Shown: positions 7,469 to 54,138 of the stretch, one piece after another
Position numbering within the stretch: position 1 is the stretch's first letter
Layout of the letters: every line of letters begins with the position of its first letter
Assembly: GCA_965230295.1 (NCBI GenBank)
Contig: OZ246001.1
Span: 96,001-160,000, forward strand
Length of the DNA stretch: 64,000 bases
From: Marinicella sp.
Lineage (GTDB): Bacteria > Pseudomonadota > Gammaproteobacteria > Xanthomonadales > Marinicellaceae
Reading direction: 5' to 3'
Made by a program: the position numbers and the translations under genes
Notes under the pieces: generated by a model
The model's database searches: none
What the model was told of the DNA's origin: nothing
The model's input: the letters and a program-made list of their open reading frames with translations, nothing else

Positions 7469-7990
7469 TCAGACCCTGTCTTTTTGTTCGTAAGGGTTGA
7501 TGATATTTTTCGCTATATATTGACCAAACACATAACCCAAATATACAACCACAAACCAAACCCAAACTGAATGCCCCTCAACTTTTTTGATCCAATAAGC
7601 TGGCCAAGTGATGGCCGTGATGAAATTCATCAATGAGTTGATGAAGAAATTCACCACATCACCAACACCCAATGATGACAAGGTGGCCATCACCGTTTCT
7701 TCGCTGGTCATGAAATCAACAATTTCCCAGAACTCAACAACAACATAAGTTAATACTGCCATCACACCATAGAAGCCACCACCAAAATCAACCCACTTCG
7801 ACATCATGACCCTTTGCAACGACCATTTTTGCTTTTTCATGTCCTGTTTGATTTGTTTCATACCTGCTTTGTCTTTATTTTCAATGACTGCAACAGAATC
7901 ACTGCCTTTTTCCTTCAGCAACAAGTAAAACAAAACAAAACTAACCAGGCCAGTACTGACAAATGCCAGCATTAATTTCAAGTACACCAT
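7469..7990 (-). CDS. Hypothetical membrane protein
   Basis: 173-aa ORF with several hydrophobic helices and FGGGFYG; follows the cpcT-like gene by 9 nt. Confidence 0.7.
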   Translation of the reverse strand: MVYLKLMLAFVSTGLVSFVLFYLLLKEKGSDSVAVIENKDKAGMKQIKQDMKKQKWSLQRVMMSKWVDFGGGFYGVMAVLTYVVVEFWEIVDFMTSEETVMATLSSLGVGDVVNFFINSLMNFITAITWPAYWIKKVEGHSVWVWFVVVYLGYVFGQYIAKNIINPYEQKDRV

Positions 7991-7999
7991 ACTGTTTAC

Positions 8000-8647
8000 C
8001 TAGCGATCTGCATCGCTTGTGTTGACTCGGTCAAAAACATATGGACCAGCAGTGGCGCCCCAAACTTGTTCATCGTTGACATCAAAACCTTGGTCCCAAC
8101 TGGTAATGGCAGATGTTGAAATTTCTACCACAGATGTGGCATATGTGGCACCTCGCAGCTGACTCAGACAGTCTTTTTCAACAGTACTGCCCGTGTAATT
8201 GTTTGTGCCTTTTAAATTCAAAATCACGGCACAACCCGTACGCAATTTCAAATCAACAGGTGACAGGCCATTCAATAATGCAGGGGTTTCATAGCCCCCA
8301 ATGACGGCTTTTGGATCTGGTAATTCATACACTGCACTGCTGAATCGACCATCACCTAAAGCGGTCACATGGTAAACGCGTTGTCGGTATGGCTTGTCAG
8401 GTTGGCTACCGACAGCTTGTTCTACATACAACCATTTACCATGGGTATCAGCAAGCCAAATGGGCTTCATCTTTAAACTGATGTGAAAATATCGATCATC
8501 TTTTAACGATTGTTGGAGGCTGTTGAATTCACCTGACATCAAGTCAATCAGCTTATCTAACTGCGTTTCAGGTTTAACCTGTTTAGATTGACAACCTACC
8601 AAAACAAAGAGCATCAAAAGAGGCGTTAATATTTGCTTGAACTTCAT
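8000..8647 (-). CDS. CpcT/CpeT-family chromophore-lyase-like lipoprotein
   Basis: Lipobox LVGC; LYVEQA, PYRQRVY, GCAV, SWDQGFD and QVWGA..GPY motifs of CpcT/CpeT. Confidence 0.85.
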   Translation of the reverse strand: MKFKQILTPLLMLFVLVGCQSKQVKPETQLDKLIDLMSGEFNSLQQSLKDDRYFHISLKMKPIWLADTHGKWLYVEQAVGSQPDKPYRQRVYHVTALGDGRFSSAVYELPDPKAVIGGYETPALLNGLSPVDLKLRTGCAVILNLKGTNNYTGSTVEKDCLSQLRGATYATSVVEISTSAITSWDQGFDVNDEQVWGATAGPYVFDRVNTSDADR

Positions 8648-8797
8648 GTGCCAGTCCCAAATTAAAGTCCACATTCTAACACTGTTGGCTAAAATAATAC
8701 TTGTTAATCAAATGATGACGGTAAGTGATGTCATGAATGAAAAAACATTCACATCCCTGTGAATTTAAAGACCTTTCGTGCTAACTCAATGACTATG

Positions 8798-9856
8798 TCA
8801 TGCCCATTTTATGGTATACAGCTCGTATACATTTTTTGGCCTGGTTTCATCACCACCCACATCTGATGTTTTGTGTTCCTTCACTTGCTTAACCGGAAAC
8901 ACAGGACCTTTGTCTCCTGACGGCTTCAGCTCATCAATATTGAATTCTATGGTATGGTGATGCTCTTTAAAGATATCTGGCTGAATGGTGCCCACCATAT
9001 CACCTGAAATGGTTGACCCCTCACCCAAAGGACATCGGTCATCCGCATTGGGATCAGTGCCTGCCCCATTGTCCCATGAACGCATGAAATAACCCCTGAC
9101 ATCAGGTAATAAAGATCGGTCATTTACACCCACTCCAAATCGACCATTCAATACTGAATTTAAACGGGTCATCTGATCTGAGAGCTCTATCGGTGATTTG
9201 CATAATGACAATTGGGTTGCCGGGGGATTGGCGGTGGCTATCAATTGTTGGGTTTGGCCGATGACCCCATCAATCATACATGGTAAATTTTCTACTGCCA
9301 CATGGCCAATGTTGGCATAAATTTTACTTATTTTAATCACCGCAGCATTGGAACTGCTTTGCAGTTGAAAAGTCAATTCATTGGCTTTCGCATCAATGAA
9401 TAATTGTAATTCGATCACCATTTCATTGGCTGCCTCGCTGATCCTCACTTCTGAAGAAGCGCTGATGCCATCTGTAAGAATGGCACTTACCTGACTGCCA
9501 GCTGTGACATCAAGATGGATGCATGCAGTTACCGTTTGGTTGCGCAGGACTTGTTGCCACCTGGGAAACTCATGCAAAGCCTGTTTAAAAACCATCTTTG
9601 CACCATCATTGCTGGTTGTAATGACCAATTGATCTTCTTCAAAACCAATGTTCCCGGTGCCCCCGCTGTCTTGATATTGATAACCATCTGGCACGCCATA
9701 ATTTCGATTGGCTCCTTCACCTTCAGCATTGCTGAAATACCTGAAGTCATGGTTATAGACCAAGTTTTTTTGATTCACGGCCATGATTAAATGGTGGAGT
9801 TCGTGGTCATGAAAGTTTCGCCTGTAATCACTCAACATAGTCGTCCACCACTTCAT
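8798..9856 (-). CDS. Protein with C-terminal phage tail-collar/tail-fibre-like domain (start may be 9784)
   Basis: LPDVRGYFMRSWDNG.G.DP, VGTIQPD.FKEHHH and terminal GGDETRPKNV..Y.IK match the collar/short-tail-fibre pattern. N-terminal region is beta-rich (NLVYNHDF). Confidence 0.7.
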   Translation of the reverse strand: MKWWTTMLSDYRRNFHDHELHHLIMAVNQKNLVYNHDFRYFSNAEGEGANRNYGVPDGYQYQDSGGTGNIGFEEDQLVITTSNDGAKMVFKQALHEFPRWQQVLRNQTVTACIHLDVTAGSQVSAILTDGISASSEVRISEAANEMVIELQLFIDAKANELTFQLQSSSNAAVIKISKIYANIGHVAVENLPCMIDGVIGQTQQLIATANPPATQLSLCKSPIELSDQMTRLNSVLNGRFGVGVNDRSLLPDVRGYFMRSWDNGAGTDPNADDRCPLGEGSTISGDMVGTIQPDIFKEHHHTIEFNIDELKPSGDKGPVFPVKQVKEHKTSDVGGDETRPKNVYELYTIKWA

Positions 9857-11516
9857 GTCCTACACCGACCAACAAATTTGTTAATTCATTCAGGTATTGG
9901 GTTTTGGATTGCGAAAGTAACCGCTCAGAATTCTTATACCGGTTGTAAGCTTCCCCTGTTTTTAAGCATTCGCCTGCAGGTTCCACCACCCTTGGCCCTA
10001 TGGGTGAGGTTGCCTCAGCGTATGAACTCGGTTGTGAATTCATGAATGCAGCCCATTGTGTCCATGGTGCCAAATAGATTTCCCAACTGAATTTGTCTGA
10101 GCCATCTACTTGAATGCTGGTTTCGAGATAACTTGGGTAACTGATGGGTCGATCCACATCGAAATAAAGCACCTTTTTGATTTTGGGTTTGTATTCCAAA
10201 TTTGGAAAGCAGGCCCACATATCAACGAGCATCCCATTGATGGTCAAAATCAAACCATCTGACGATGCATCCACTTCGCCGGTACACATGTAACACGGCT
10301 TCAATGATGAAACCAATGAGATGTGCATTTTCTTGTAATGGCTGTATATGAGTTTGATTTGAATGTCAGTGGCATCAAATTCATAAAAATCACAAACCCC
10401 TGCAAACCACACAGCTCCTGAATATGCCAATTGTTTATTGGCATTATCCACAGCATCCAAACTCAGTAACAACCGCGTTTCTGCATGCCCTGATTTAACT
10501 TTACCTTTGATGTTCAGAGCCGTACACAGTTTCATCATCTCTGCCACTGAAGGGTCTACTCGTTTATCAGATATGAACAACGAAGCACCAATGTTGTAGT
10601 TATTGGTCGACAATGATTTGGCCTGATATTCGGGTGGTTCAACGCCCCATGACGGGTTCCATCTGGGCATGATGGGGTCATAGGCATACTCGCGATCCAT
10701 CACCGCCTTGATGACCGAGCCTGTCGCTTGCTTCAGACCCTTGTATCGGGGTGCTCCCATTCCTTGATCAACATTCTTTTGCATATCGACAATGGTGTCC
10801 CAAACCACCAATTGGTTGTAATTTTGAATGATGGCATACGAACTGGCTTGACCAGAATCTTTAACGGGCAAATCCAGCAACAAGAACCATGGATCAGTCG
10901 CATTGACCACGTTTCCGGGAGCTGGTATTGGGTTGTTGATGACCAGATTTGCATTGATCACCCAGTCTTTGGTTTGCGGCATGCCCGGTTGTTGCTGATA
11001 GAAGATTGCATACTGGTTGTCCATTTTTATGGTACTCAAAAGTTGAGTATTTAGTTTGGTATTGGTTTGCTCTTCTATGGTCCATATATTCAAACCTGAA
11101 TCCGCCGCATCACTGGTGAATATACTGGAGTGATTGACATAGAATAAAGGCCATAGGCTGTAAACCAATTGAGCCATGAGCTCCTCAGAATCCAGACTTT
11201 TGTCACAAAACATATCAGTCACTTTGAGCCCTATGTCTTTGGCATACATGATGTAGGCATGTAAAACACTGGGAAAAAAACCACTCATGATCAACTGTGA
11301 TGGGTCTGGTATTTCACATTTCAGATAACACCCCTCTTTAACACTGATGTGCTCAACCCCCAACATGGCAGTGTTTAGGTCTTGATTGTCATCAGTTTTA
11401 CTGGATTTATTTTGTGTTGAATTGGCTTTGGTCGCTGCCTTATTGCTTGCTTTTTTCTTACTGCTTACATTGGTATTGGTCTCACCTCTGCCATACAGGT
11501 ATATAAATTTTGACAT
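9828..11516 (-). CDS. 562-aa protein with zinc-dependent nucleic-acid deaminase motif (TadA/Bd3614-like fold)
   Basis: NIGASLF strand, GHAE (10479-10490) and SSLKPCYMC (PCYMC at 10284-10298); RBS GAGGT. Confidence 0.65.
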   Translation of the reverse strand: MSKFIYLYGRGETNTNVSSKKKASNKAATKANSTQNKSSKTDDNQDLNTAMLGVEHISVKEGCYLKCEIPDPSQLIMSGFFPSVLHAYIMYAKDIGLKVTDMFCDKSLDSEELMAQLVYSLWPLFYVNHSSIFTSDAADSGLNIWTIEEQTNTKLNTQLLSTIKMDNQYAIFYQQQPGMPQTKDWVINANLVINNPIPAPGNVVNATDPWFLLLDLPVKDSGQASSYAIIQNYNQLVVWDTIVDMQKNVDQGMGAPRYKGLKQATGSVIKAVMDREYAYDPIMPRWNPSWGVEPPEYQAKSLSTNNYNIGASLFISDKRVDPSVAEMMKLCTALNIKGKVKSGHAETRLLLSLDAVDNANKQLAYSGAVWFAGVCDFYEFDATDIQIKLIYSHYKKMHISLVSSLKPCYMCTGEVDASSDGLILTINGMLVDMWACFPNLEYKPKIKKVLYFDVDRPISYPSYLETSIQVDGSDKFSWEIYLAPWTQWAAFMNSQPSSYAEATSPIGPRVVEPAGECLKTGEAYNRYKNSERLLSQSKTQYLNELTNLLVGVGHEVVDDYVE

Positions 11517-11531
11517 TTGAATAACCTCATT

Positions 11532-11585
11532 TTTGATGATGAATCAGAACGCCCTGCACCCATCATCAAACATGTGTGCAGGACG
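11532..11585 (-). promoter_or_regulatory. Predicted H-type pseudoknot or alternative-pairing RNA element before the deaminase RBS
   Basis: Two interleaved 10-bp helices: 11576-11585 pairs with 11550-11559 (one G-U); 11561-11570 pairs with 11532-11541 (perfect). Confidence 0.55.
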
Positions 11586-11595
11586 TATGGTTAAA

Positions 11596-12210
11596 TTAAT
11601 TGTTGGGTAATACGCTCCAAGTATTACTGCCATTCAATTCAACATTCATGACTTTGGTTCCTTTGTACTGAAGTTTCAAAGCGTTGTCTGTCACTTTGGT
11701 GATATCAATCACTTCACCTTCTTCAAAGTTACCGAAAATCAACCAATAGGTAGGTTTTGGTGTGAAAATTACTTTCATATTAGGCTGTGAAGGCACATAA
11801 AAAGCACCTTTGCCGGACATGCCAATACCCACACTGGCATCATTCGATACCACTCGTTTGGTTTGGTCGATGTACAAATTACCTTCATAGTCACCCTGTG
11901 ATGCATCACTGAATGTGTATGCGCCATCTGCATAATTAAAATTCACATGATTCAATGTACTTAAGTTGGCATTCCAGGACTGGCTTGATTTAACAATGGT
12001 TCCAGGCTCTAGATCAGTGGTTTTTGACCAAACAAAACTGTAATCAATGCCCCATTCGAACTCTAAATGCGATGTGGGATGTGCTGGTTTTGCGAGCCAA
12101 GCCAATGTGGTGATACCAGGCACATTGACATCCGGCAATTCTTGAAATATACAGAAGCTACCAGTTTGTGTAGAGTTGTTTTGTACGTTTAATTTATAAA
12201 TATCAGTCAT
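11596..12210 (-). CDS. RhiA-like (rhizosphere-induced protein A) beta-rich protein
   Basis: Pattern Y.L...N.S...G.FC.FQ..P......LAW......P......F.W..DY.FVW...LEPG, plus GIGMSG and F.P.P.YW..FG.F..GEV.D, recalled as RhiA-like. RBS GAGGA. Confidence 0.6.
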   Translation of the reverse strand: MTDIYKLNVQNNSTQTGSFCIFQELPDVNVPGITTLAWLAKPAHPTSHLEFEWGIDYSFVWSKTTDLEPGTIVKSSQSWNANLSTLNHVNFNYADGAYTFSDASQGDYEGNLYIDQTKRVVSNDASVGIGMSGKGAFYVPSQPNMKVIFTPKPTYWLIFGNFEEGEVIDITKVTDNALKLQYKGTKVMNVELNGSNTWSVLPNN

Positions 12211-12392
12211 CTTAAAATTCCTCGTGTAATTAGTGTTTATTTAAATTAAGAACATTTTCTGAATGCTTTTGATGTCTTGATGACTTCCCCTCAAAATGAT
12301 CAACCGTTGTGAGGTATTTCAAATTACATTCAATGTTATTTAATGTTCATGTTTATTATATTTATTTGAATATTTGAATAACTTTTCAAACG

Positions 12393-13214
12393 TCATTTGA
12401 AACTTTGATTATGTAATTTTCGGTATTGTTTAGGGCTCATGCCGGTGATGGATTTGAAAGTGGTGGAAAAATTTGCTGCATTCTCATACCCGACTTCAAA
12501 GCAAATGGATTGGATGTTGATGTTGCTCCACTTCAGTAAATTTCTGGCTTTAACTATTCGGGCATTCCTCAACCATGAATAGGCACCTACTCCTAGTTGG
12601 TTTTTAAAAGCAATTGCCAATGAGTTTCTGTTGGTACCAAGAAACCGACAGAGGTCATCTAAAGATGAATAACTGGGCATGTTGTTCATTAAATAATGGC
12701 AGGCAGATTTCACCAAAGCCTGTTCTTTGTTTTGGGTTGTTTGATTCAGTTGCTCTTGCTCTTCGAAAATTTTCAAACTACAAGCAGCCGCATACAGTAA
12801 ATACAAATTGGTTCGGTGAACCAGTTCGACACTGCTTATTGATGTGGTGATGTAGTCATAGACTTGTTTGGCGAAAAGCCTGTCTTTTGCAGAGTTAACA
12901 TCCTTCATGATAGCAACTATCAGCATATTGGATTGTTTGATTTTCATCACTTGATCTAACAAGCCTAAATCACTGCTGCAATCTACATAAACCAGTTTAT
13001 TTCGTTCGAAGAGATTGGCGCTGAGATCCTGATTGTTTTCCGCGACAGTGACACGATAACCTTTCTCACTCAGCGTCGACTCAACCTTCTTGATGGGAGG
13101 GTTTAAATGACTGATTACCAGTAAGATGTCTTTGCCAATGTTTTTCTTGATGGTACTTTTGCAAATGTTTTCTTCTATGTATCGATTGATGATGTCGCGT
13201 TCTTTACTGATCAT
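12393..13214 (-). CDS. AraC-family transcriptional regulator with degenerate receiver-like N-terminal domain
   Basis: C-terminal LGTNRNSL..AFK and EVGYENAANFSTTFK..TG.SPKQYR; N-terminal alpha/beta region with DYI..SI...EL. Confidence 0.85.
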   Translation of the reverse strand: MISKERDIINRYIEENICKSTIKKNIGKDILLVISHLNPPIKKVESTLSEKGYRVTVAENNQDLSANLFERNKLVYVDCSSDLGLLDQVMKIKQSNMLIVAIMKDVNSAKDRLFAKQVYDYITTSISSVELVHRTNLYLLYAAACSLKIFEEQEQLNQTTQNKEQALVKSACHYLMNNMPSYSSLDDLCRFLGTNRNSLAIAFKNQLGVGAYSWLRNARIVKARNLLKWSNINIQSICFEVGYENAANFSTTFKSITGMSPKQYRKLHNQSFK

Positions 13215-13648
13215 GATTCACTTCAAACATGCATGTAGTTACTTCAATTTTTTCTGTGTTGAATACTTTTTAATATATAAAAGAACAACACCTCGCATCT
13301 TTTGGATACATCAGACTTTGATTTGAATTTGTAATTACAGGTACATTTGTTGAATCACATTCATTTTGATCAATCCGTAATCAAGTATATGAAAATCTGT
13401 CAGTTCGATATAGATCTGACAAATCAACACCAGCCGCCAATGGCGGAAAACCCCCTATATGATTGATATTTATGAACAAATAAACCTGAAAGACAGTACA
13501 TTGATGTGCGTGATGCACACTCAACTTTCTGTATCCCCCTAATAACACAGTGTAAGGAATAAATTTTCGACAGCAAGCATTATTGCAATATTTGACTTTA
13601 TATATGTGTGGTTATGAACAATTTGATTCGTGCAATCAGCACGTTATT

Positions 13649-14314
13649 TTAATCAGCATCTGAATTTTCATCGAACCCTTCGATTTGCTTATAGATGATT
13701 AAAGAATAAATAACCGGTACCAGACCAGCCGCAATGACTGCCGATATCATAAAAGAGAATGGCCATTTTAAAAACCCACCCAAAACAGTCAATAACCCTG
13801 CAATTACAAAGACCCAAGAACCCATTCGGTGTGTTTTATACCATACTTTATCTGAAGCCAAAGTCCATGGCGTCCTGATACCCAGGAAGAAGTTTCTTGG
13901 CACCTTGCTTAAGTAATTACCAATGATAATAAATAAAGCCCCCATCCCAACGAAAACCCATTGATTCATGTCAATTTCACGATTCATTCCTGCTTCGAAA
14001 GACAGCACCATGATTCCTAAGTAAAACAACGCCATAACCAAAACAATGATTTCATAAGCCTTCTTGGCTTGATCTAATTTAAACCCTTTGGGAGCAATTT
14101 TTGGCAACAGCAACAATAAGATGCTCGAAAACAAGGAAATCATCGGCATAAGGTAAACCCCCCATGGCTTATTCATATAACCATCAACTTCACCATGGAT
14201 GTTCCAATGACTGGGAATCTTTTCTGGTAATTTAGGTTCATAAACAAAGGCCACCAACCATGTGATGGCAACCACTGTGATCAGTGAAAATAAAATTTTA
14301 TTGTTCTTCATCAT
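13649..14314 (-). CDS. SdpI-family (DUF1648) membrane immunity protein
   Basis: LPEKIPSHWNIHGEVDGY and GNYLSKVPRNFFLGIRTPWTL...VW.KTHR motifs. Confidence 0.9.
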   Translation of the reverse strand: MMKNNKILFSLITVVAITWLVAFVYEPKLPEKIPSHWNIHGEVDGYMNKPWGVYLMPMISLFSSILLLLLPKIAPKGFKLDQAKKAYEIIVLVMALFYLGIMVLSFEAGMNREIDMNQWVFVGMGALFIIIGNYLSKVPRNFFLGIRTPWTLASDKVWYKTHRMGSWVFVIAGLLTVLGGFLKWPFSFMISAVIAAGLVPVIYSLIIYKQIEGFDENSDAD

Positions 14315-38153: not shown

Positions 38154-39335
38154 ATGGAAGAAACCTTCGACATTGAAATACCGAACTTTACTTTGGGCAA
38201 AGAAATTGGTCGCGGCGGCATGGCGCGAGTCTTTATTGGTGAACAACTTGAGCCCAAAAGACCGGTGGCCATAAAAATTGTGACACCTCAAGGCAACGAC
38301 CCGAAAATCCTGGAAGATTTACAGAAAGAAGGTGATACGGTTGCACAATTTTCCCATCCAAACATCGTGACGGTATTCTCATGTGGTGTGATTGAGCAAA
38401 ATTACTACCTGGCCATGGAAATTCTCGGTGGCGGTGACCTCAAGCAAAAAATCGAATCTGGCATCACCGAATTGGAAGCCTTCAACATCATGCTGGATAT
38501 GGCCAAAGCCCTGGAACATGCACACAAAAGGGGTACATTACATCGAGACATCAAACCAGAAAACATTTTATTTCATGAAGATGGTCAGGCTGTTCTGGTT
38601 GACTTTGGTATTGCCAAAGCTCAAAACACCGTCAGTGAATTCACCCGGGTGGGTGCAGTTGTCGGCACCCCGCATTACATGAGTCCAGAGCGTGCTTTGG
38701 GTAAAACCATTGATGAACGTTCTGATATCTATGCCTTGGGCGTGGTTTTGTATGAAATGTTGATTGGCGAGAAAGTTTTTGAAGGCAGTGATACTTTTGC
38801 CATTTCTTATGCCCATGTGCATGAACCCGTTCCTGATTTACCTGAAGCAAAAGCCAAATACCAAACTTTGTTAAATAAGTTATTGGCAAAGAATCCGGAT
38901 GACCGTTTTCAAACCGCCACCCAATTGGTGGCACAACTTAAAAAATACCTGCGTCGACTGAAACCGGTGACAGATACGACCCATTCTTTTGCGCCGTTAC
39001 CGGACATGGCTGCGAAAAAGAAAACCAGTCTGCTGCCTTTCATCATTACCGGGGTGATTGTTGTGGTGGCTGTGTTGGTTGGTATGCAATTCATGAACAA
39101 CAATGGCACCGCGGTTGATGTCAATTTGGCTGAATTAACACCCAGTCAAAAAGTAGAGCTGTCCAACAAACTTGCAGCAGCCAACAGTTTTTTCAATCAG
39201 GAATTGTTTGACAATGCCGAGAACTTATACATTGATATTTTGACCAATTACAACTGTAAAGAAGAGGATGCACGCGGTCGACTTGAAATCATTAATCCCG
39301 GGAAATTACAAGGCATACTTGACGCATGTGATTAA
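38154..39335 (+). CDS. Hanks-type Ser/Thr protein kinase with TM helix
   Basis: IGRGGMA.V, VAIK, HRDIKPEN, DFGIAK and GTPHYMSPE; TM helix near residue 295. Confidence 0.95.
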   Translation: MEETFDIEIPNFTLGKEIGRGGMARVFIGEQLEPKRPVAIKIVTPQGNDPKILEDLQKEGDTVAQFSHPNIVTVFSCGVIEQNYYLAMEILGGGDLKQKIESGITELEAFNIMLDMAKALEHAHKRGTLHRDIKPENILFHEDGQAVLVDFGIAKAQNTVSEFTRVGAVVGTPHYMSPERALGKTIDERSDIYALGVVLYEMLIGEKVFEGSDTFAISYAHVHEPVPDLPEAKAKYQTLLNKLLAKNPDDRFQTATQLVAQLKKYLRRLKPVTDTTHSFAPLPDMAAKKKTSLLPFIITGVIVVVAVLVGMQFMNNNGTAVDVNLAELTPSQKVELSNKLAAANSFFNQELFDNAENLYIDILTNYNCKEEDARGRLEIINPGKLQGILDACD

Positions 39336-39357
39336 ACAATTCACATCAATTAGATGC

Positions 39358-39387
39358 AAAAAAACCCTGAAATCTCAGGGTTTTTTT
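39358..39387. terminator. Bidirectional intrinsic terminator
   Basis: AAAAAAACCCTGA-AATC-TCAGGGTTTTTTT between convergent genes. Confidence 0.85.
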
Positions 39388-39410
39388 ATGATTAAATTAT
39401 GCGGTTTGTC

Positions 39411-41384
39411 TTATATGTTTTCTGGCAAAAAATAAAACTCACTGCCCTCATGACCGGCGTGCTTCACAGCAGTATATTCCGGGCTTTGTTGGATACCGGA
39501 TAATTTAGATCGCAACCTGACTTGTTGATCCAGGGCTTTGTACAGCCTATATCCTTCCATCACCCCATCATTTTCACGCAATACATCCAATAAAGCAGAA
39601 GCAAAGATTGAATGGCCATCACCACCACTGTCTAACACCGGTTGTAAGCCACCTGAGGTTAACACCGTTCTGGCTTTGACCCTTGAAGTGAACAACAAAT
39701 CATTTTCTTCCACATCTTCAGGAAATGGCCTGATGGAAGAACCTGACATGGTACCTGAGTAACATGAGTCGGCGATCACCATCACATGTTTGGCTTTCAT
39801 ACTGGACATGAATTCACTGATGACATTGTTAGGAATCCAAGTCTTTTTATCATCCAGTTTGGCATCGGTCGGGATCCAATAACCATTTTGACGTTCATCA
39901 ATCAAGCCATGGCCCGCATAATAAACCACCAAATTATCCAGCTTACCCAATTTCTCCTGGTAATCAGCCAAAGCTTGTACAATGGTTAAATGTGAAGCAT
40001 TTTCCAAAACCTGAGTTTTGTATCCATAGTTGTCGCGCAAGACTTTGGCCACTTGTTGTGCATCATTGATAGCAGTGCCCAAATCTTCAAGATCTGCATA
40101 GCTGTTGTTGCCAATGATCAAGGCATGGTAGGTTCCAAGGTCTTGTTGAAAACGCTTGGTAAACAAGTCGGTTAGGTACCTGGGTTTGATTTGTTCCAGA
40201 ATCTGTCTGACCACCACAAATCGTTCAACAGACTTGGATCCATCGTTTTTAACCGCTTCAATGCTGACTGGGGTGTCATCATCTTTCACCAATGGCACAT
40301 CAACACTGAATATGCCGGTATCGGTCAGCTTGTCGGTGATGTTGTTGTTGTTCAAAGTCAAACCGGCCACTTCTTCAGGTGGGTTCACACTGCCCATAAT
40401 TGACATGGAAGTGGCCTCATTATTGGCAATGGGGATACTTCGGATACCACGAGTCAAAAGGATGTCCGGGGTGATCACATTGATACCAAACTGATCGGTA
40501 TTCATGGCGATTTCTTGGCCACTTTCGGCAGCTATTTTCCTCACCAATGTAGACGCCAACTCTTTGCTTTCTTCATTTTGATTGGTTAAATCTTTAACTT
40601 GTTGCTCCAACTTGGCGATTTGACTCTGAACGGCAGGGTCATCTTTCTTGTCCCTGAGCTCAGCCTGCAACCTTTGTAGCTCGGTGTTGGCTGACTTGAT
40701 GTAGTCTTGGGTTTTTTGGTAATTTTCAGAGACATCGGAAAGCTCATTTTTCAAATTTGAAACTTCCCTTTCCAACTGAATTCTTTGGTATTCTTTTTCT
40801 CTTCTGTCACGCAGGTCTTGTTCAGTGACCAATTCTAATTTGGCTTCAGTCACCCCTGCCGCCTGGCGATATAAGTTGATGGCTTTGACCGAATCTTGAG
40901 GAACACCTAAGCCTTTTTCATACAGATTTCCCAAATTTAATTGGGCAGAAGAAAAGCCCTGGTCGGCGGCTTTTTGATACCAGGCTGCTGCTGATTCATA
41001 ATCAGGGGTACCATTGATGCCGCGCTCAAACAGTTCACCCATGTAGTTTTGTGCAGTGGCATCACCACCATCGGCTTGTTGTTTCCACACTTTAGCCACT
41101 GTAGCGAAATTTGATTCATCATATGCCACGTATTCACCACCACGCAAAGCACATTCCTTGGCAGTGAGCTTAGCAGGTTTGCGAGGCGGTACATAGGTGA
41201 AGTTTTGGCCCAACTGTCGGATTTGTGGAGGTAACAAACAATCCACAATGTAAAGCTGATCCGGGGTGATTTGCCCCTCTTTGACCCCTTTTACTTTTTT
41301 CGAACGTTTGGCATTCGCATCGCTGATGATCAGCGAGGTCAGTGCGAAGATAACCAATAGATATTTAAACAAAACGTTTTTCAT
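39411..41384 (-). CDS. Secreted Sel1-repeat, coiled-coil, caspase-like (peptidase C14) protein
   Basis: Signal peptide; Sel1 repeats (AQLNLGNLYEKGLGV); coiled coil; ALIIGN, YAGHG and DSCYSG His/Cys dyad. Confidence 0.9.
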   Translation of the reverse strand: MKNVLFKYLLVIFALTSLIISDANAKRSKKVKGVKEGQITPDQLYIVDCLLPPQIRQLGQNFTYVPPRKPAKLTAKECALRGGEYVAYDESNFATVAKVWKQQADGGDATAQNYMGELFERGINGTPDYESAAAWYQKAADQGFSSAQLNLGNLYEKGLGVPQDSVKAINLYRQAAGVTEAKLELVTEQDLRDRREKEYQRIQLEREVSNLKNELSDVSENYQKTQDYIKSANTELQRLQAELRDKKDDPAVQSQIAKLEQQVKDLTNQNEESKELASTLVRKIAAESGQEIAMNTDQFGINVITPDILLTRGIRSIPIANNEATSMSIMGSVNPPEEVAGLTLNNNNITDKLTDTGIFSVDVPLVKDDDTPVSIEAVKNDGSKSVERFVVVRQILEQIKPRYLTDLFTKRFQQDLGTYHALIIGNNSYADLEDLGTAINDAQQVAKVLRDNYGYKTQVLENASHLTIVQALADYQEKLGKLDNLVVYYAGHGLIDERQNGYWIPTDAKLDDKKTWIPNNVISEFMSSMKAKHVMVIADSCYSGTMSGSSIRPFPEDVEENDLLFTSRVKARTVLTSGGLQPVLDSGGDGHSIFASALLDVLRENDGVMEGYRLYKALDQQVRLRSKLSGIQQSPEYTAVKHAGHEGSEFYFLPENI

Positions 41385-41395
41385 GATTTCACCTG

Positions 41396-44300
41396 TTAAA
41401 ACTCAAATCTGGCACCTATATTGATGGTACCTCGTGTAAACCCTTCTAAGCCGAAGATGCTTCGGTAGTTAATGTAAGCTTGCTTACCGTTGGCGCCAAT
41501 GAACACCAAACCAACACCAGCAGAACCATATGTTCGGTCTGGCTCATCAGTAGCAATGAAGAAAATTTCATCATCCGGCGCATCAATGAATCTGGCTTCA
41601 ACAAAACCACCATCATTTTCTGTTTCCCGACTGAAGTTAAAATCGAACTGTGGTGCCAATACCCCATTTTTCAAACTGATGGCCTTCGATACGCTGGCAC
41701 CCACCGACCAGACCATGCTTTTCACTTCTTGTTCAGCAAATGCAAAATTAAAACCACCTGCTCCAGTCTCCTGGAAGGCATCAATGGTCGTTTTGACATA
41801 CCTGAATGATGCATTGGGTGTGATGTTCCAGGCATTTTTATTGAAGTGGTAACCCATACTCATGGCCACAGAATACTGGTCAGAGTCGGTTTTACCTGTG
41901 GCCACCCGGTCCACAGCTATGTTGTCTAAATTGAAGTTAATTCGCCGGTTTTGTTCAAAGTCAGGATTACCATAACTGACCCTGCCATCCAGGTATAAAT
42001 TATCCTTCAAATAGAATGAACCATATCCTGTGAGGGTGAATCCAGTTGACTTCATCTCGGCTTCACCTTCAATTTCAGAATCAAAATTGGCATAGCCTAA
42101 GGCTAATCCGGCAACTTTGGTTGGGCTGAACCGGTAATCAACACCGGCTGTTAAACCAAATGTATCAAAGTCGAAACCCAGTTCTCGTCCTGTGGTATCT
42201 CGTTCACCCATTGAAATACTGCCATTGACAAATACACCCCATGGAGAGACAAAATCGCTGATGTTACTGGTTGCCGGGTCTTCTTCTGATTCATTCAAAT
42301 AAGCCAACATACCAATTGGAATCGATTCATTGCCATAACGTCCCGTTAGACCCGATACATTGAAACCAGCCCCACCACCGCCTTTTAATTGTGCCAACCT
42401 TGAGTCCACATTGCGGTACTGTGATGTGATGATTTCAGCGGCAGAATTAGATTGACCAGCCACTTCATTGGGGGTGATCTCTTCCATCAGATTGATGATG
42501 TCCCCACCATTTTCAGGTCGAGCCCCAGCAATGAGTTCTTCACAGAGGCCTTCTATGGCCATGAAATAACTCCTTGCACAATAACTCGAAACATTTCTGA
42601 TGGTTTGCATCACCGTGTCACTGGCAGAACTGCCCACCACACCATCAAATATGGCAAATATCTCCTCCTCAGTCGGCGTTCTGGTCACGTCATTGTTGAA
42701 GCTGACCATGTTGTTACCAGGTTGGGTGTCCATCGAATCTGATTCAATAGACGCATTAAGCACGATGGGTTGTGATTGTTGAACGACTTGTTGCGTGTTA
42801 ACCCTGAGGTTTATAGTTGACATATCACCTACTTGGAAGTCGCTGGGGTAGGTGCAATTAACTGCAGTGTTGTTGACTTGACAGGCCCAACCATCGGCAC
42901 TGACTAACTGAACATTCTGAATCAAACCACTGATGCTGGCATTCAATCGTGCATTAACCGCACGATCAGGGCCATTGTTTAAAGCTATGAAAGACAGCTC
43001 AACTGAATCTCCTTGTTGGACTTGTTGTTGACTGACGTTCAATTCCAATGCCAAATCAGCATCTAAATCAGCAACCGTATTGACGGTAATTTGACCTGAC
43101 CCCTGGTTGTTTGAAGGGTCGGGGTCAAATGTGTCGGCTGTCACTTCCACATCATTGAATATGACGCCACTGAACCCAGCAACAAAGGTTCCATCCAACA
43201 GTATCTGCTGAGACTGGTTATTGGGTAAGGCAGCTATTTCACACATCAACGAAGTGTCTAATAAGGTACAGCTGACACCTGCTCCCACTTGTACGTTTCC
43301 AGGAATAAAACCAACAGGCAGTTGGTTGATTATTTCTACATTTTCAGCCGCGTTTGGACCCATGTTAGAGACTTCAATGGTCCATGAGACTTGTTCTGTA
43401 TTGATCACTGTTGAATTATTGGCTTCAACGGTCACAGCCAAATCAGCTCTGGCCACCCCACCAGTCCCATTGACCACATTCACAGGTGCTGAATCTGAAT
43501 CATTACTTGGGTTTTCATCACCGGGTAATGACACAGCGGCATTGTTGGTGAATTGACCGGTGGTATCCGGAGCAATGACATTAAGACTCAACTGCGTGTG
43601 ATTGCCGGAAGTTAAACTGCCATTGAATTGACATGTCACAGAAGTATTACCTTCACAAACCCAACCACTTCCTGAATAACCTTGTAGGACCATACCCTCA
43701 GGTAAATTATCTGTCAAAATGAAGCTGGTTTGGGTTTCACTGCCAACATTAAGCACATCCAACAAGTAGGTTAACGGTTCATTGGTACCCACTTCATTGA
43801 CTGATGCAGTTTTGGTCAAGGACAAATCATTGGCAGCATTACCAAGGACCACCACCCTGTTGTAGGCAGTTTTGAGTACGCCATCAGCATTCACCGCAAC
43901 GTTGCTATCCACTGGGCCAATGAAATCATCCACCTGTAAGCGTACATCGATACTGGAAGACTCACCTTGTAACAAAGTTGAAATGTTGTTACACGTGATG
44001 ATCGGGTTGTCAAAAGTACAGCTGTAGTCATTGCTGCTTACTCCTAACAGGTTAGCTTGCTCGGGTACGGCATAAAAAGCACTGACATTAACGATGTCGA
44101 AACTGCCCGTATTATTGATGGATATGATTTCAGTGTATGGCGTTCCAACTTCTACTTCAGGTGTCGTACTGATGATACTGACAAACACATCACTGGTACT
44201 GAATGCCACAGGTAAACTTTCACTCAATGGCGTACTCAATTCCAGGGCATCAAACGTGGTGTTTAAGGCATAGGTTTGATTGGGAACTGGATTAGCAACC

Positions 44301-47056
44301 GAGGTGGTTTGAATGGTTACATTCACATTACCGCTGGCGGCCAAAGGCGGGGTATAAATACAGCTAACCAAACCTGAATTTTCAGCACAGCTGACTCCAG
44401 GATCCCCGCTGAAACCGTTGTAAGTGAAGCCAGTGGGTATTTGGCTGTCAATTTGGACACCAGTCAAAGTTGCCGTACCCATATTAGAGGCCAAGACGAC
44501 AAAATCGACATCGGCTCCAGGGTCCACAGGACTTGGAACTTGGCTTAAATTCAAAGCACCCATGGCATTCAATAAACTCAGTGTTATTGAGTCATTGACG
44601 GCTGGTCCAATGTTTGTTCCTATAACTTGCATTTGATTGAAAATACTGGTTACAGCTGTGTTACTGGTGGCCGTGACATCCAACACAATCTGAGCAGTCG
44701 CACCTGAGGGCAATGGGTTGTCCAAGGTACAATCTACGATGTCGCCTCCCCCTCTTTGTATCATGATCATCGTACAAGTCCAACCAGTTGCAGTGGTGTT
44801 GTTCAATGAGACATCAATGGGCAGATTGTCAGTGACCTGGATATTCAGGGCATCATTGGGACCGGTGTTTTGTACTTCAAGGACATATTCAAAGTTTTGT
44901 CCGTAGTTTACGGTGGTAATGGGTACACCAGCCACCGATGCCCTTTTAGTAGCGGTTACGGTGGTTACCGTAGGCCCCGTGATCACCACAGTAGGCGCAG
45001 AATCGGTGTTGTTCCCGGTATTGCCATCCGGGTCAGCAACAGTAACAACCGTGGCAGCATTGTTAACATTCGGGCTGGCTGTGGCAGCTGTTACATTGAT
45101 GTCAATGGTGACATCTTCAGCAATCTGGAAAGGCGCCCCACCCGTATCACAACTGACCAAACCTCCTGTGGCCGAGCCATCATGGGTACAACTTACGGGT
45201 GTGCCATTAACAGAAGCCGTCACAAATGAGTCAAAACTGACTTCAGGTGGCAATTGATCTGTAATGACGACATCAACAGGAGATGCTGTTGAAGGTGCTG
45301 GGTTAGATACAGCTAAAAAGTAAGTGAATGTGTCATTGACCGCAAAATTGGTTCCACTGACGGTTTTAACTACCGAGAAATCTGCCGATCCGGCATTGAT
45401 GGTATCAACCTGCCCGTCTGAATTGTTGCTGGTGAATGAGTCGGCAGCACTGAAAATGTCAGCATTGGCAAATGCCCCGGTACCTGTTGGCGTCACAGCC
45501 AAAACTTCCACACTGAAATCATGTGTCGAGAATGATACAAAGGGCGCTCCCGCTCGATCACAACTGATATCACCGCCATTGGGTGAACCATCATGATTAC
45601 AAAACCAGCCAGGCGCATTGGCCAGATTGACATTGGTGAAACTGACTTCAGTGGGTAAATTTATACTGACAGTTGTATCAGAAGGACTGGCTGTAGAGCC
45701 CATGGGGTTATTGACTTGAATCCCATAAAAAATAGAGTCGCCTTGATTGTAAGTCGAACCTGATGAAGTGAACACCAAAGACAAATCTGCATCCCCTGGG
45801 AAAATATCAAAAAATCCATTGGCCACATCATTGGAAGGATTGGGGTCAAAATCACTGGTCACAATCGCAGATGCACCCAGGGTTGTACCAGCAGTAGTGG
45901 CTACGGCCACCACTTCTATGAATGTATTGGTACCGATAGGTACAGGGTTTCCTTGGCTGTCACAAGTCACATCACCGCCAGTTGGCGAACCATCATGGGT
46001 ACATGCCCAACCGGCCGCATTGGTCACTTGTGCCGAATTAAACACCACTTCATTAGGCAATGTAGTCACCACCGTATTGTTGGTGGGTGCAGCAGTTGAC
46101 GCAAACGGATTGTGTAAGGTTAAATCAAGAGTCACCAGATCACCCACAGTATATGTGGTCTGATTGGGGATCAAAGTCAAGTCCAGGTCTGCCGAAGGTG
46201 GCCCAGCCAAGACGACGAAGCCAACCGTATCACTGTTGTTGCTTGGAAAGGGATCGACTTCATCAGCAGATACATCTGCCACATTGGTTTTGGGACCAGG
46301 TTGTGCGTTGATATCAACCGTGGTAGCGATGGTGAAATCCAAGGCGTCCCCTGTTGGTAGGCTCAACACAGTACATTGTATCACTGAGCCAGTATCTACA
46401 CATTCTGGACTTGAACCACCGGGTTCGAAAATGAGGTTGTTAACAATGATGTCATCAGTAATGATTACATTATTGGCATCAGGCCCCAACGCGTTGCTCA
46501 CATTCAGATTAAAATTAATCTGATCTCCTGGATTGACATTGTTAGGGAACCCCGGCGTAATGGATTTGGTGATTTCCAAATCGACACTGCCACCCAAGAA
46601 CTGAATATCAATCAATGCTGTGTTGTCGCTGGTATTGACTTCCACACCACCCACATCACTGACAGTGGCCACAATGGCAGGCATGTAGGTAAAATCTCCA
46701 GGTTGATGGATAATGCCTACCCCTAAAGTGGTGGTACCACCAAAAGCATTGAGGGGGCCCTGATATAGACATGTGTTGAGGTTTTGCAGGTTACTACAAT
46801 CCCAATTGGGATCTCCAGTAATGGTGCCTTCAAAATCCAGCAACGGGTCCTGGAGTTGAATATCAATAAGGATGCCGTCTCCAGCAATTAAATCACCGTC
46901 ATTATTGACATTGAATTCGACAATATGTGCCTGACCATCACCAGGAAACTGGAATGGCGTGTCTGTGTTCATGTTCAAATCAGGCTGAGCCAGTACAACA
47001 GCACTCAACATCAATAAAATGACCGATAACAAGTAACGATGATTCAACTTATTCAT
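41396..47056 (-). CDS. Autotransporter with multiple DUF11 repeats
   Basis: Signal peptide; repeated ADL.L.K...N.GP..A...D.LP...D.NP.NN modules; C-terminal barrel (G.DYRF, terminal ARFEF). Confidence 0.9.
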   Translation of the reverse strand: MNKLNHRYLLSVILLMLSAVVLAQPDLNMNTDTPFQFPGDGQAHIVEFNVNNDGDLIAGDGILIDIQLQDPLLDFEGTITGDPNWDCSNLQNLNTCLYQGPLNAFGGTTTLGVGIIHQPGDFTYMPAIVATVSDVGGVEVNTSDNTALIDIQFLGGSVDLEITKSITPGFPNNVNPGDQINFNLNVSNALGPDANNVIITDDIIVNNLIFEPGGSSPECVDTGSVIQCTVLSLPTGDALDFTIATTVDINAQPGPKTNVADVSADEVDPFPSNNSDTVGFVVLAGPPSADLDLTLIPNQTTYTVGDLVTLDLTLHNPFASTAAPTNNTVVTTLPNEVVFNSAQVTNAAGWACTHDGSPTGGDVTCDSQGNPVPIGTNTFIEVVAVATTAGTTLGASAIVTSDFDPNPSNDVANGFFDIFPGDADLSLVFTSSGSTYNQGDSIFYGIQVNNPMGSTASPSDTTVSINLPTEVSFTNVNLANAPGWFCNHDGSPNGGDISCDRAGAPFVSFSTHDFSVEVLAVTPTGTGAFANADIFSAADSFTSNNSDGQVDTINAGSADFSVVKTVSGTNFAVNDTFTYFLAVSNPAPSTASPVDVVITDQLPPEVSFDSFVTASVNGTPVSCTHDGSATGGLVSCDTGGAPFQIAEDVTIDINVTAATASPNVNNAATVVTVADPDGNTGNNTDSAPTVVITGPTVTTVTATKRASVAGVPITTVNYGQNFEYVLEVQNTGPNDALNIQVTDNLPIDVSLNNTTATGWTCTMIMIQRGGGDIVDCTLDNPLPSGATAQIVLDVTATSNTAVTSIFNQMQVIGTNIGPAVNDSITLSLLNAMGALNLSQVPSPVDPGADVDFVVLASNMGTATLTGVQIDSQIPTGFTYNGFSGDPGVSCAENSGLVSCIYTPPLAASGNVNVTIQTTSVANPVPNQTYALNTTFDALELSTPLSESLPVAFSTSDVFVSIISTTPEVEVGTPYTEIISINNTGSFDIVNVSAFYAVPEQANLLGVSSNDYSCTFDNPIITCNNISTLLQGESSSIDVRLQVDDFIGPVDSNVAVNADGVLKTAYNRVVVLGNAANDLSLTKTASVNEVGTNEPLTYLLDVLNVGSETQTSFILTDNLPEGMVLQGYSGSGWVCEGNTSVTCQFNGSLTSGNHTQLSLNVIAPDTTGQFTNNAAVSLPGDENPSNDSDSAPVNVVNGTGGVARADLAVTVEANNSTVINTEQVSWTIEVSNMGPNAAENVEIINQLPVGFIPGNVQVGAGVSCTLLDTSLMCEIAALPNNQSQQILLDGTFVAGFSGVIFNDVEVTADTFDPDPSNNQGSGQITVNTVADLDADLALELNVSQQQVQQGDSVELSFIALNNGPDRAVNARLNASISGLIQNVQLVSADGWACQVNNTAVNCTYPSDFQVGDMSTINLRVNTQQVVQQSQPIVLNASIESDSMDTQPGNNMVSFNNDVTRTPTEEEIFAIFDGVVGSSASDTVMQTIRNVSSYCARSYFMAIEGLCEELIAGARPENGGDIINLMEEITPNEVAGQSNSAAEIITSQYRNVDSRLAQLKGGGGAGFNVSGLTGRYGNESIPIGMLAYLNESEEDPATSNISDFVSPWGVFVNGSISMGERDTTGRELGFDFDTFGLTAGVDYRFSPTKVAGLALGYANFDSEIEGEAEMKSTGFTLTGYGSFYLKDNLYLDGRVSYGNPDFEQNRRINFNLDNIAVDRVATGKTDSDQYSVAMSMGYHFNKNAWNITPNASFRYVKTTIDAFQETGAGGFNFAFAEQEVKSMVWSVGASVSKAISLKNGVLAPQFDFNFSRETENDGGFVEARFIDAPDDEIFFIATDEPDRTYGSAGVGLVFIGANGKQAYINYRSIFGLEGFTRGTINIGARFEF

Positions 47057-52755: not shown

Positions 52756-53932
52756 GGCTTTTCTCCTCTTGCATGGCTGCAATGAACGGTTCAAATAATT
52801 TCTTGGCCTCATGCGGACCAGGGCTGGCTTCCGGATGGCCTTGGAAGCCATAGGCATTTTGTAGCTTGTGGCTGATACCTTGAACACTGCCATCAAACAA
52901 TGAACGGTGTGTCACTTCTAAAACTTCAGGCATGTCTGTTTCGGCCACTGCAAAGTTATGGTTTTGACTGGTGATCATTACCGTTTTGTCCTGACAATTT
53001 TCTACCGGGTGATTGGCACCATGGTGACCAAATTTCATCTTCATGGTTTTGGCACCCAAAGCCAGAGCCATGATTTGGTGGCCCAGGCAAATGCCAAACA
53101 AAGGTATTTTATGTTCGAGGAAAGTCTGACAGGCTGCGACGGCATAATCACAAGCTGCTGGGTCTCCAGGTCCATTAGACAAAAAGACACCATCCGGTCG
53201 CATGGCCATCACTTCAGTGGCTGGAGTTTGTGCAGGTACCACAGTCAACTCACAACCCAGCCCTTTTAAAATACGTAAAATATTGCGTTTCACACCAAAG
53301 TCGTAGCAAACCACTTTATATCGATCATCATTCGGTTCCGGAAATTGGTTGTCAGTCAAATCAAAACAAGCTTGTTGCCATGAATAGGCCGTTTCACAGG
53401 TCACTTCCTTGGCCAGGTCTTTGCCTTCTAATCCCGGAAAATTTTTGGCCATTTCTATGGCTTTGCCTTCATCCAAGTCATCTCCACTCATGATACAACC
53501 ATTTAAGGATCCGTTGAGTCGCAGTAAATTGGTCAGTTCACGGGTATCCAGACCACTGATAGCAACCACATTTTGTGCCTTTAAATAGGCATCAAGTGTG
53601 CTTTCATTGCGCCAGTTACTGGCCACAATTGAGTTGTCCCTGATGATCAAACCTTTGGCATGAATCTTGTCAGACTCATTGTCTGCCTGATTGGTCCCGG
53701 TGTTACCAATGTGCGGGTAAGTCAAGGTGACCATTTGATCTGCGTAAGAAGGGTCAGAAAGAATTTCTTGATAACCCGTCATGGCAGTATTGAACACCAC
53801 CTCAGCTGTTGTATCACCGCGTGCACCCAAAGCGGTGCCATGAAATATGCTGCCATCTTCAAGTACCAAAATGGCAGGACTGCGATGACTGGAAGGAAAT
53901 AAAATTTGATTTAATTTTGACACTTTGCTCAA
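52748..53932 (-). CDS. carA: Carbamoyl-phosphate synthase small subunit
   Basis: [27 protein letters not shown] and FQGHPEA. Confidence 0.97.
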
Positions 53933-53945
53933 CTCTTAAAGGCGT

Positions 53946-53973
53946 AAAAAAAGCTGGCGTGAACCAACTTTTT
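53946..53973 (-). promoter_or_regulatory. Terminator-like hairpin in the carA leader (possible attenuator)
   Basis: Minus strand AAAAAGTTGG-TTCACG-CCAGCTTTTTTT, ending 13 nt before the carA start. Confidence 0.5.
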
Positions 53974-54138
53974 ACTGTTATCGAATTGAAAGCGAATTTT
54001 AACTCAATAATCGCAGAAACACCACAAAGTATGGTTGTTTTTTTCACCCATATTCGCCAGGCCGTCCGGCAATCAAAAATATACACACTTTTTACTTATG
54101 GTCATGATTTAAATTCATCACTCCACTATAATGTTCTG

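Follow-up and report, generated by a model that had tools for sequence, protein, structure and literature searches.

The gene neighborhood analyzed here has its closest described relatives in the rhiABC genes of Rhizobium leguminosarum/johnstonii and the mrpAB genes of Microcystis. In Rhizobium, RhiA is abundant in the cytoplasm and is still described as having no known function (PMC2275737), and RhiB bears a phage tail collar domain (PMC13133039). On pRL10, the gene order is rhiA (231 amino acids, aa), rhiB (195 aa), rhiC (149 aa), and the LuxR-type regulator gene rhiR; rhiA and rhiB are direct neighbors. Similarity to RhiA and RhiB is also seen in mrpA and mrpB of Microcystis (PMC3328848). 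Plant-metabolite binding was shown only in 2026, for RhiA-like PSMB proteins that bind solanidine and salicylic acid (PMC13490719). The zinc deaminases provide a second point of comparison, mainly TadA, a single-domain, universal housekeeping enzyme of ~150-180 aa, and the Bd3614 branch, which is described as having an HAExN motif, a lost strand 5, an N-terminal Bd3614N domain, and a neighboring 23S rRNA methylase (PMC3239186). In the present study, we analyzed a 64,000-nucleotide (nt) stretch of DNA from Marinicella sp. (assembly GCA_965230295.1, contig OZ246001.1, positions 96,001 to 160,000 of the forward strand; hereafter the window), in which a gene coding for a 562-aa protein lies between homologs of rhiA and rhiB. 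Sequence and model comparisons place residues ~256-440 of this protein in the CDA superfamily, as a zinc-deaminase domain with an intact predicted catalytic set. The protein is a member of a previously undescribed, very rare family within this known superfamily. Its features, in window positions, are as follows:

9828..11516, minus strand: the 562-aa deaminase-fold protein, an ATG-started open reading frame (ORF) with 562 codons open
11337..11483, minus strand: residues 12-60, a K/N/S/T-rich disordered insertion with a predicted local distance difference test score (pLDDT) < 50 in AlphaFold2 (AF2)
10752..11336, minus strand: residues 61-255, which together with strand 1-11 make up an N-terminal alpha/beta domain ending in a long helix
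10197..10751, minus strand: residues 256-440, the TadA-like zinc-deaminase core, as delimited by VIA-align and hhalign
10479..10487, minus strand: codons of H344-A345-E346, a predicted zinc ligand and the predicted catalytic glutamate
10284..10298, minus strand: codons of P407-C408-Y409-M410-C411, with predicted zinc ligands
9831..10196, minus strand: residues 441-562, a conserved C-terminal extension (YFDIDxxIxY, PIGPRxVEPAGE, RY)

A GAGG Shine-Dalgarno sequence lies 9 nt 5' of the ATG of the deaminase gene. The translation contains NIGASLF at residues 308-314, ALN at 333-335, GHAE at 343-346, and SSLKPCYMC at 403-411, so that both the ORF and the motif order given by an earlier reading of the sequence alone (the sequence-only reading) were recovered. 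HAE begins at residue 344 and PCYMC at residue 407, and the spacing of 61-63 residues agrees with the roughly 60 residues that had been estimated. That reading had also proposed to check the conservation of HAE and PCYMC among homologs. In an 18-sequence family alignment (A2), in which identity to the query falls to 18% and nine rows are distant members of ~500 aa with 18-22% identity, HAE and the P, C, Y, and C of PCYMC were invariant in 18 of 18 sequences. The invariant core residues of A2 are N308, I309, N335, K337, H344, A345, E346, S403, P407, C408, Y409, C411, and G413. In a 13-sequence alignment of the family (A1), HAE was invariant in 13/13 rows and PCxxC was present in 12/13, the exception (P0012) being a 342-aa fragment that ends upstream of the motif; T347 and R348, which extend the motif to HAETR, were invariant in A1 as well. 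Since the catalytic residues are invariant in A2 down to 18% identity, the family motifs are not the product of chance, and this pattern indicates that the predicted catalytic residues are under strong constraint. The conservation extends beyond the core. G79, K93, Y119, and Y126 of the N-terminal part are invariant in A2, as are Y451, D453, D455, Y460, R526, and Y527 of the C-terminal extension (18/18), where model confidence is low. Conserved residues thus run along the N-terminal, core, and C-terminal parts, and therefore the whole ~500-residue body is one conserved unit.

The sole Pfam match of the 562-aa protein was PF14439 (Bd3614-deam), at an E-value of 0.075 and 13.5 bits compared with a cut-off of 38.5 bits. 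The same family was also sub-threshold in 4 of 11 homologs, with a top score of 21.3 bits. NCBIfam returned 0 families for the protein, PHROGs gave only a match at E 0.11 to a family of unknown function, and the family profile had 0 matches among PDB sequences at E up to 10. At E ≤ 1e-5, the PF14439 hidden Markov model picked up ordinary TadA genes in 195 of 301 genomes, and it exceeded its cut-off in only 10. The 20 PF14439 loci returned all encode HAE and PCxMC; 19 of them are ORFs of 147-178 aa, and one is of 450 aa. Because PF14439 cross-matches ordinary TadA in this way, the weak match of the query means TadA-like rather than Bd3614. The sequence-only reading had placed a TadA/Bd3614-type core in the C-terminal half, and only the TadA-like part of that assignment stood. 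An identity as Bd3614 was rejected, both by the low score and by the motif, which is HAETR and not HAExN; PF14439 remains the one Pfam model that registers. The neighborhoods also differ, as the Bd3614 gene is accompanied by a 23S rRNA G2445 methylase (PMC3239186), whereas the genes found here are RhiA-like, RhiB-like, and AraC genes.

The relation to TadA was examined by profile comparison, in which an alignment of 13 TadA sequences from the PF14439 loci (A3) was used for hhalign. The full family profile aligned with A3 at 90% probability over the PCxxC block, and the domain columns alone reached 94% with an E-value of 1.4e-7, a value that comes from one pairwise comparison and not from a database search. 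At a relaxed threshold, the three motifs stood in register across a long insertion, pairing YNIGASLF with VPVGAVLV, N..HAE with N..HAE, and SSLKPCYMC with VTLEPCxMC. The 562-aa protein thus shares with TadA/Tad2 three motifs in the same order and register: an xxGAxL strand, an N ~9-11 residues before HAE, and a hydrophobic strand followed by PCxMC. It differs from TadA by its additional N-terminal domain and C-terminal extension, by an insertion of about 35-45 residues in the core between the HAE helix and strand 3, by K/L-PCYMC in place of EPCxMC, and by being an accessory gene. A separate TadA-like ORF of 159 aa is present in the same genome (G000:C1:1195940-1196152). An identity as TadA was rejected by this ORF, by the length of 562 aa, and by the occurrence of the family in only 2/61 related genomes.

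The structural comparisons were in line with these results. In the full-length AF2 model (pLDDT 63.7; predicted template modeling score, pTM, 0.72), HAE opens helix 345-360, where pLDDT is ~85-91, and PCYMC (407-411) comes after strand 397-403. Both hallmarks of the CDA superfamily, H/C-x-E at the start of the second core helix and PCxxC after the third strand, are therefore present, and support for the three-layer alpha/beta/alpha deaminase fold is moderate. When the full model was searched against the PDB with Foldseek, the ten best rows were all deaminases, with a lowest E-value of 0.056. VIA-align against 48,161 representative PDB chains returned CDA-superfamily deaminases in all of rows 1-25. 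The top row was the guanine deaminase 2g84_A (Z 7.1, root-mean-square deviation 4.5, 146 aligned residues, model residues 227-522), and the lower rows included TadA/ABE8e, ADAT2/3, dCMP deaminases, yeast cytosine deaminase, RibD, and ADARs, with TadA chains at Z 5.5-5.6. The NE0047-type guanine/ammeline deaminases, to which 2g84 belongs, also stood in the top Foldseek rows, but 2g84 is a single-domain protein of 189 aa that shares 14% identity with the protein described here and gave no significant match in the sequence search. The ESM Atlas gave no usable match with the whole protein; with the features of residues 256-562, the nearest named clusters were all deaminase families, at scores ≤ 0.83 that serve as leads only. 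Taken together, five lines (Pfam, the specificity of PF14439, the profile comparison, the structure search, and the Atlas) agree, and none of them is strong alone.

The N-terminal part of the protein was the second point on which our results bear on the sequence-only reading. Residues 12-49 had been described as K/N/S/T-rich and probably disordered; these four residues make up 26 of 38 positions (68%, vs 25% in residues 61-562), and pLDDT is < 50 over residues 12-60, in keeping with that description. The same reading had likened the stretch to the N-terminal leader of injected effectors. However, it lies behind a conserved first beta-strand (MSKFIYLYGxGET; MSKFIYLYGRGET). It is present in 4 of the 12 A1 rows that cover the N-terminus (P0001-P0004) and in 0 of 9 distant members, and the other 8 A1 rows and all nine distant members run from the first strand directly into the next. 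Because only 4/12 close homologs carry the stretch, and carry it behind a conserved strand, it is not a leader; nor were secretion or injection genes found among the 33 window proteins scanned, and this part of the earlier proposal had to be abandoned. The stretch is a dispensable, lineage-specific loop insertion in the N-terminal domain.

The N-terminal part as a whole had been called about 300 unexplained residues, a description that no longer applies, since ~250 of them fold as a confident globular domain. This lobe was modeled from residues 1-215 of the homolog at the related locus L003 (49% identical, without the insertion), with a 22-row alignment, and reached a pLDDT of 92.1 and a pTM of 0.89. 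Its layout consists of two long hairpin strands, a helix, a strand, helices, more strands, and a final helix of 25 residues, and no metal-binding motif was found in the N-terminal alpha/beta domain. Residues 1-255 thus form an alpha/beta domain of their own, which folds well and has no metal ligands. The VIA-align and Foldseek lists for this lobe contain the MPN/JAB proteins RadC, Rpn8/Rpn11, eIF3 subunits, JAMM1, BRCC36, and AMSH, and also cytidine deaminases, DddA/DddB, and blasticidin-S deaminase; JAB has been assigned to the deaminase-like fold (Iyer et al., 2011; PMC3239186). Two cytidine deaminases with two domains each, 1af2 (E. coli) and 6l08 (Arabidopsis), occur in the match lists of both lobes, a likeness that would suit a protein in which an active deaminase-like domain stands in tandem with a degenerate one. 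The comparison differs in three respects: the N-lobe matches to these chains are weak (Z 3.0-3.1), the order is reversed, with the predicted active domain of the 562-aa protein being C-terminal, and the sequences show no similarity. In the close subfamily, "HAY" and "WPLFY" are retained where the N-lobe has its corresponding helix and post-strand positions, which is suggestive only. Because of the JAB/deaminase-like matches and the presence of 1af2 and 6l08 in both lists, the N-lobe might be a degenerate deaminase/JAB-like fold that serves as a built-in pseudo-dimer partner, a suggestion that we make only weakly.

The family to which the protein belongs is very rare. Among 5.77 billion protein clusters, 13 proteins, the query included, were found at E ≤ 0.001, one of which is named only "hypothetical protein [Marinicella sp.]". 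An exhaustive phmmer search of 1.84 billion representatives found 18, including 8 at E ≤ 1e-30. The family profile was present in 2 of 61 related genomes, namely the window's own and 1 of 23 other genomes of the same genus. In a phylum sample of 401 genomes it was found in the window's genome only, two further matches being 17-residue fragments with stop codons. The distant subfamily (P0019-P0027) includes a homolog from Azorhizobium caulinodans ORS 571, protein BAF89785.1. A tblastn search of 72,556 plasmids with the 562-aa protein gave no match at E up to 0.01, and literature searches on Bd3614, on RhiA/deaminase/tail collar, and on Marinicella deaminases found no description of the family.

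The deaminase gene is the third of four genes that make up an accessory island and are inherited together. The other three genes are:

12393..13214, minus strand: AraC-family transcription regulator, 273 aa, first gene of the island (HTH_18 9.9e-20, HTH_AraC 1.1e-14)
11596..12210, minus strand: RhiA homolog, 204 aa, with 141 homologs
8798..9856, minus strand: extended RhiB-like/phage-tail-collar-like protein, 352 aa (346 aa from the Met at 9838)

We compared the island with six related loci (L002-L007), which are one contig of a metagenome-assembled genome and five metagenome contigs; the counts refer to those loci in which the flank in question exists. The order AraC, RhiA-like, deaminase, RhiB-like was kept in all six loci as far as the contigs reach. 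An AraC homolog was present upstream in 4/4 loci (35-72% identity over the whole protein), the RhiA-like gene in 5/5 (60-94% identity), and the RhiB-like gene in 4/4, and the deaminases of these loci share 37-64% identity. In another genome of the same genus (G403), the homologs of window positions 8000-8674 and 13649-14314 are collinear and 60 nt apart, without the cassette between them. The start of the RhiB-like gene overlaps the stop of the deaminase gene by 11-29 nt in the window, depending on the Met chosen, and by 35, 4, and 1 nt in L002, L003, and L004; in L005 the RhiB-like start is uncertain. The recurrence of this overlap in the window and these three loci suggests translational coupling. 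No direct or inverted flanking repeats marking a mobile element were found across the island borders. A promoter and terminator scan of 7900-13700 gave fewer promoter-like sites than in shuffled sequences and no convincing terminators. The 79-nt spacer between the RhiA-like and deaminase genes contains an inverted repeat, CCTGCAC ... GTGCAGG, with a stem of about 7 bp (11541-11575, minus strand) and no T-run. By analogy with the abundance of RhiA in Rhizobium, this repeat could be a partial terminator or stabilizer that raises the RhiA-like protein over the downstream genes. The gene adjoining the island, at 8000-8674 on the minus strand and kept in G403, codes for a CpeT/CpcT-family (DUF1001) protein (Pfam 8.5e-47), in what looks like a non-photosynthetic gammaproteobacterium.

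The flanking genes relate the island to the rhi system. All the listed homologs of the RhiA-like protein carry PF27136, and some are named "protein rhiA" or "rhizosphere induced protein". In tblastn it was 33% identical over 97% to annotated rhiA on Rhizobium plasmids, and reciprocal tblastn from pRL10 to the flanking genes gave 3e-24 for RhiA and 3e-11 for RhiB. Residues 189-351 of the RhiB-like protein are ~30% identical to Rhizobium rhiB ("protein rhiB"/"tail fiber protein") in records of 25 Rhizobium plasmids and one other, and the protein matches tail and tail-collar fiber families of PHROGs, with a best E-value of 5.7e-9. As in the rhiABC and mrpAB systems, a RhiB tail-collar homolog comes after the RhiA gene on the same strand, and a dedicated regulator is adjacent (PMC13133039; PMC3328848). 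The island differs from pRL10 by the 562-aa deaminase-fold gene between the RhiA-like and RhiB-like genes, by ~190 extra N-terminal residues of the RhiB-like protein, and by its regulator, which is of AraC type and not a LuxR-type RhiR with an acyl-homoserine lactone synthase. RhiC, searched for at E up to 1, found no counterpart in the window or in L002-L004.

Several further observations concern these neighbors. The first 150 residues of the AraC regulator had no Pfam match at E up to 1, yet they are conserved in the related loci; its ligand-sensing domain would therefore lie outside the assigned types. The extra ~190 residues of the RhiB-like protein, at positions 1-188 and absent from Rhizobium RhiB, are highly conserved (NLVYN, QALHEFPRW) and are common to > 200 proteins of ~343 aa, many from Bacteroidota, that are named "microcystin-dependent protein" or "phage tail collar domain". 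This extended family, common in Bacteroidota, was found among 400 genomes of the same class only in the window's own genome and as one weak partial match. H299 and H301 are invariant in the collar part and may resemble a metal-binding HxH. A complex prediction of the deaminase with the RhiB-like protein scored 0.00 and counts as "no answer", neither for nor against binding. The genome also contains a second RhiA paralog (G000:C1:481818-482420; L011, 7819-8454) of 211 aa with 52% identity, located after an ORF of 1185 aa. Within about 7 kb of this paralog, and of the RhiA homologs of genomes G241 and G290, no RhiB-like or deaminase-like gene was found, and the idea that every RhiA has an enzyme partner was therefore dropped.

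The best explanation of these results is, with odds that we place a little above even, that the 562-aa protein is a cytoplasmic, two-lobed, active deaminase of a rare family that probably acts on a small molecule and is encoded in a four-gene island. From the conserved motifs, we infer that the protein is an active hydrolytic deaminase. His344, Cys408, and Cys411 would be the zinc ligands, with Glu346 as the predicted proton shuttle. Less firmly, the substrate may be not DNA or RNA but a small heterocycle that bears an amino group, be it a base, a nucleoside, a nucleotide, or a secondary metabolite of the host. We lean toward a small molecule because the gene shares its island with an AraC regulator and a binder of RhiA type, whose relatives bind secondary metabolites, 20 of the 21 family members are acidic (net negative, with isoelectric points of 4.5-5.8), the top structural match is a guanine deaminase, and no feature of nucleic-acid binding or toxin delivery was found. 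In such a scheme, the AraC protein would sense the compound, the abundant RhiA-type beta-sandwich would bind it, and the 562-aa enzyme would take off its exocyclic amine. A more specific form of this proposal can be put forward tentatively, as a possibility that we consider unlikely: the protein may be the missing catalytic part of a Rhi/Mrp-type module, in which AraC senses, the RhiA-like protein captures, and a pseudo-dimeric deaminase deaminates an amino-bearing host (algal, sponge, or plant) metabolite.

Several of our own results weigh against the favored explanation. The full-length model is mediocre, as its overall pLDDT indicates, and pLDDT is < 50 across the PCxxC helix 407-436. Every VIA-align Z is < 8, in a range flagged as middling, so the structural support is consistent and not strong. 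The 562-aa protein has no significant sequence match in Pfam, NCBIfam, or the PDB. The fold matches of the N-lobe are weak, with a best VIA-align Z of 4.1, no chain at Z ≥ 5, and a best Foldseek E-value of 0.042. The preference for a small-molecule substrate, which is held less firmly, draws only on gene context and net charge. Moreover, TadA-like RNA deaminases are the closest relatives by sequence, and the Atlas neighbors include nucleic-acid deaminase clades.

These last points lead to the alternative that survives best, that of a nucleic-acid editing deaminase, in which the TadA-like core acts on adenine or cytosine in a polynucleotide (tRNA, rRNA, mRNA, or DNA) and the N-lobe and C-terminal extension recognize the substrate. 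TadA is its closest profile relative tested, being the sole deaminase family compared in that way, and the only Pfam match, PF14439, is a branch of the TadA clade. ABE8e/TadA, ADAT2/3, and ADAR chains occur in the VIA-align list at Z 4.0-5.6, and OTT_1508, APOBEC-like, and Toxin-deaminase clusters are among the Atlas neighbors at scores ≤ 0.79. However, almost the whole family is acidic, Pfam detected no RNA- or DNA-binding domain, the neighbors are a homolog of small-molecule binders and an AraC regulator rather than RNA-modification genes, and the best structural match is a free-base deaminase. We therefore regard nucleic-acid editing as unlikely, and a small-molecule deaminase as the better account.

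The protein might also be non-catalytic, or not a deaminase at all, and use a deaminase-like scaffold for another purpose, for example within a RhiA/RhiB complex, as a subunit that serves in binding or regulation. The deaminase-like fold is known to host non-deaminase activities (Iyer et al., 2011; PMC3239186), rows for FdhD and ATIC occur in the VIA-align list, and model confidence is low around PCxxC. Against this stands the invariance of all four catalytic residues, and of flanking residues, in even the most divergent sequences. Pseudo-enzymes normally lose their catalytic residues, and we consider a non-catalytic role quite improbable. The idea of a secreted or injected deaminase toxin, with the low-complexity stretch as loading or secretion leader, the RhiA-like protein or another neighbor as immunity factor, and the tail-collar protein for targeting, could appeal to the many known bacterial toxin deaminases (Iyer et al., 2011; PMC3239186), to the phage tail-collar-like C-terminus of the downstream gene product, and to the accessory nature of the island, but we hold it to be very improbable, given that the stretch is a loop insertion missing from most homologs, that no PAAR, RHS, LXG, or other trafficking domain was found by Pfam, that PADLOC gave 0 matches, that the 33 window proteins scanned include no component of a type VI secretion, extracellular contractile injection, or type III secretion system and the rest of the window holds ordinary chromosomal genes, that Rhizobium RhiA is an abundant cytoplasmic protein (PMC2275737), that RhiA homologs also occur without a deaminase gene, and that the RhiA-like protein is far more conserved than the deaminase, unlike a co-evolving immunity pair.

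Outside the island, a few other genes of the window are of note. The plus-strand gene at 53809-55272 codes for a protein of 487 aa whose C-terminal part is a Card1-like endonuclease domain (1.2e-27); this protein may be a stand-alone nuclease activated by a signal. A GGDEF-EAL protein is encoded nearby at 56323-58512. A cluster at 38154-47056 contains genes for a Ser/Thr protein kinase (38154-39335), a protein with Sel1 repeats and a caspase domain (Peptidase_C14; 39411-41384), and a 1886-aa autotransporter with six DUF11 repeats (41396-47056).

The reading of this gene as an injected editing toxin with a leader is thus corrected as unsupported. What takes its place is a protein of new architecture, in which a TadA-like core interrupted by a large insertion is preceded by an alpha/beta lobe and followed by a conserved C-terminal extension. 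Any new clade of deaminases has practical interest, since new substrate specificities can be drawn from it. If the proposed role in a Rhi/Mrp-type module is true, the 562-aa protein would provide the first biochemical activity tied to rhiAB/mrpAB and would define a new clade of deaminases whose substrate class is new as well. The island links a predicted enzyme to the long-unexplained RhiA/RhiB genes, and it offers a testable handle on what such systems act on.

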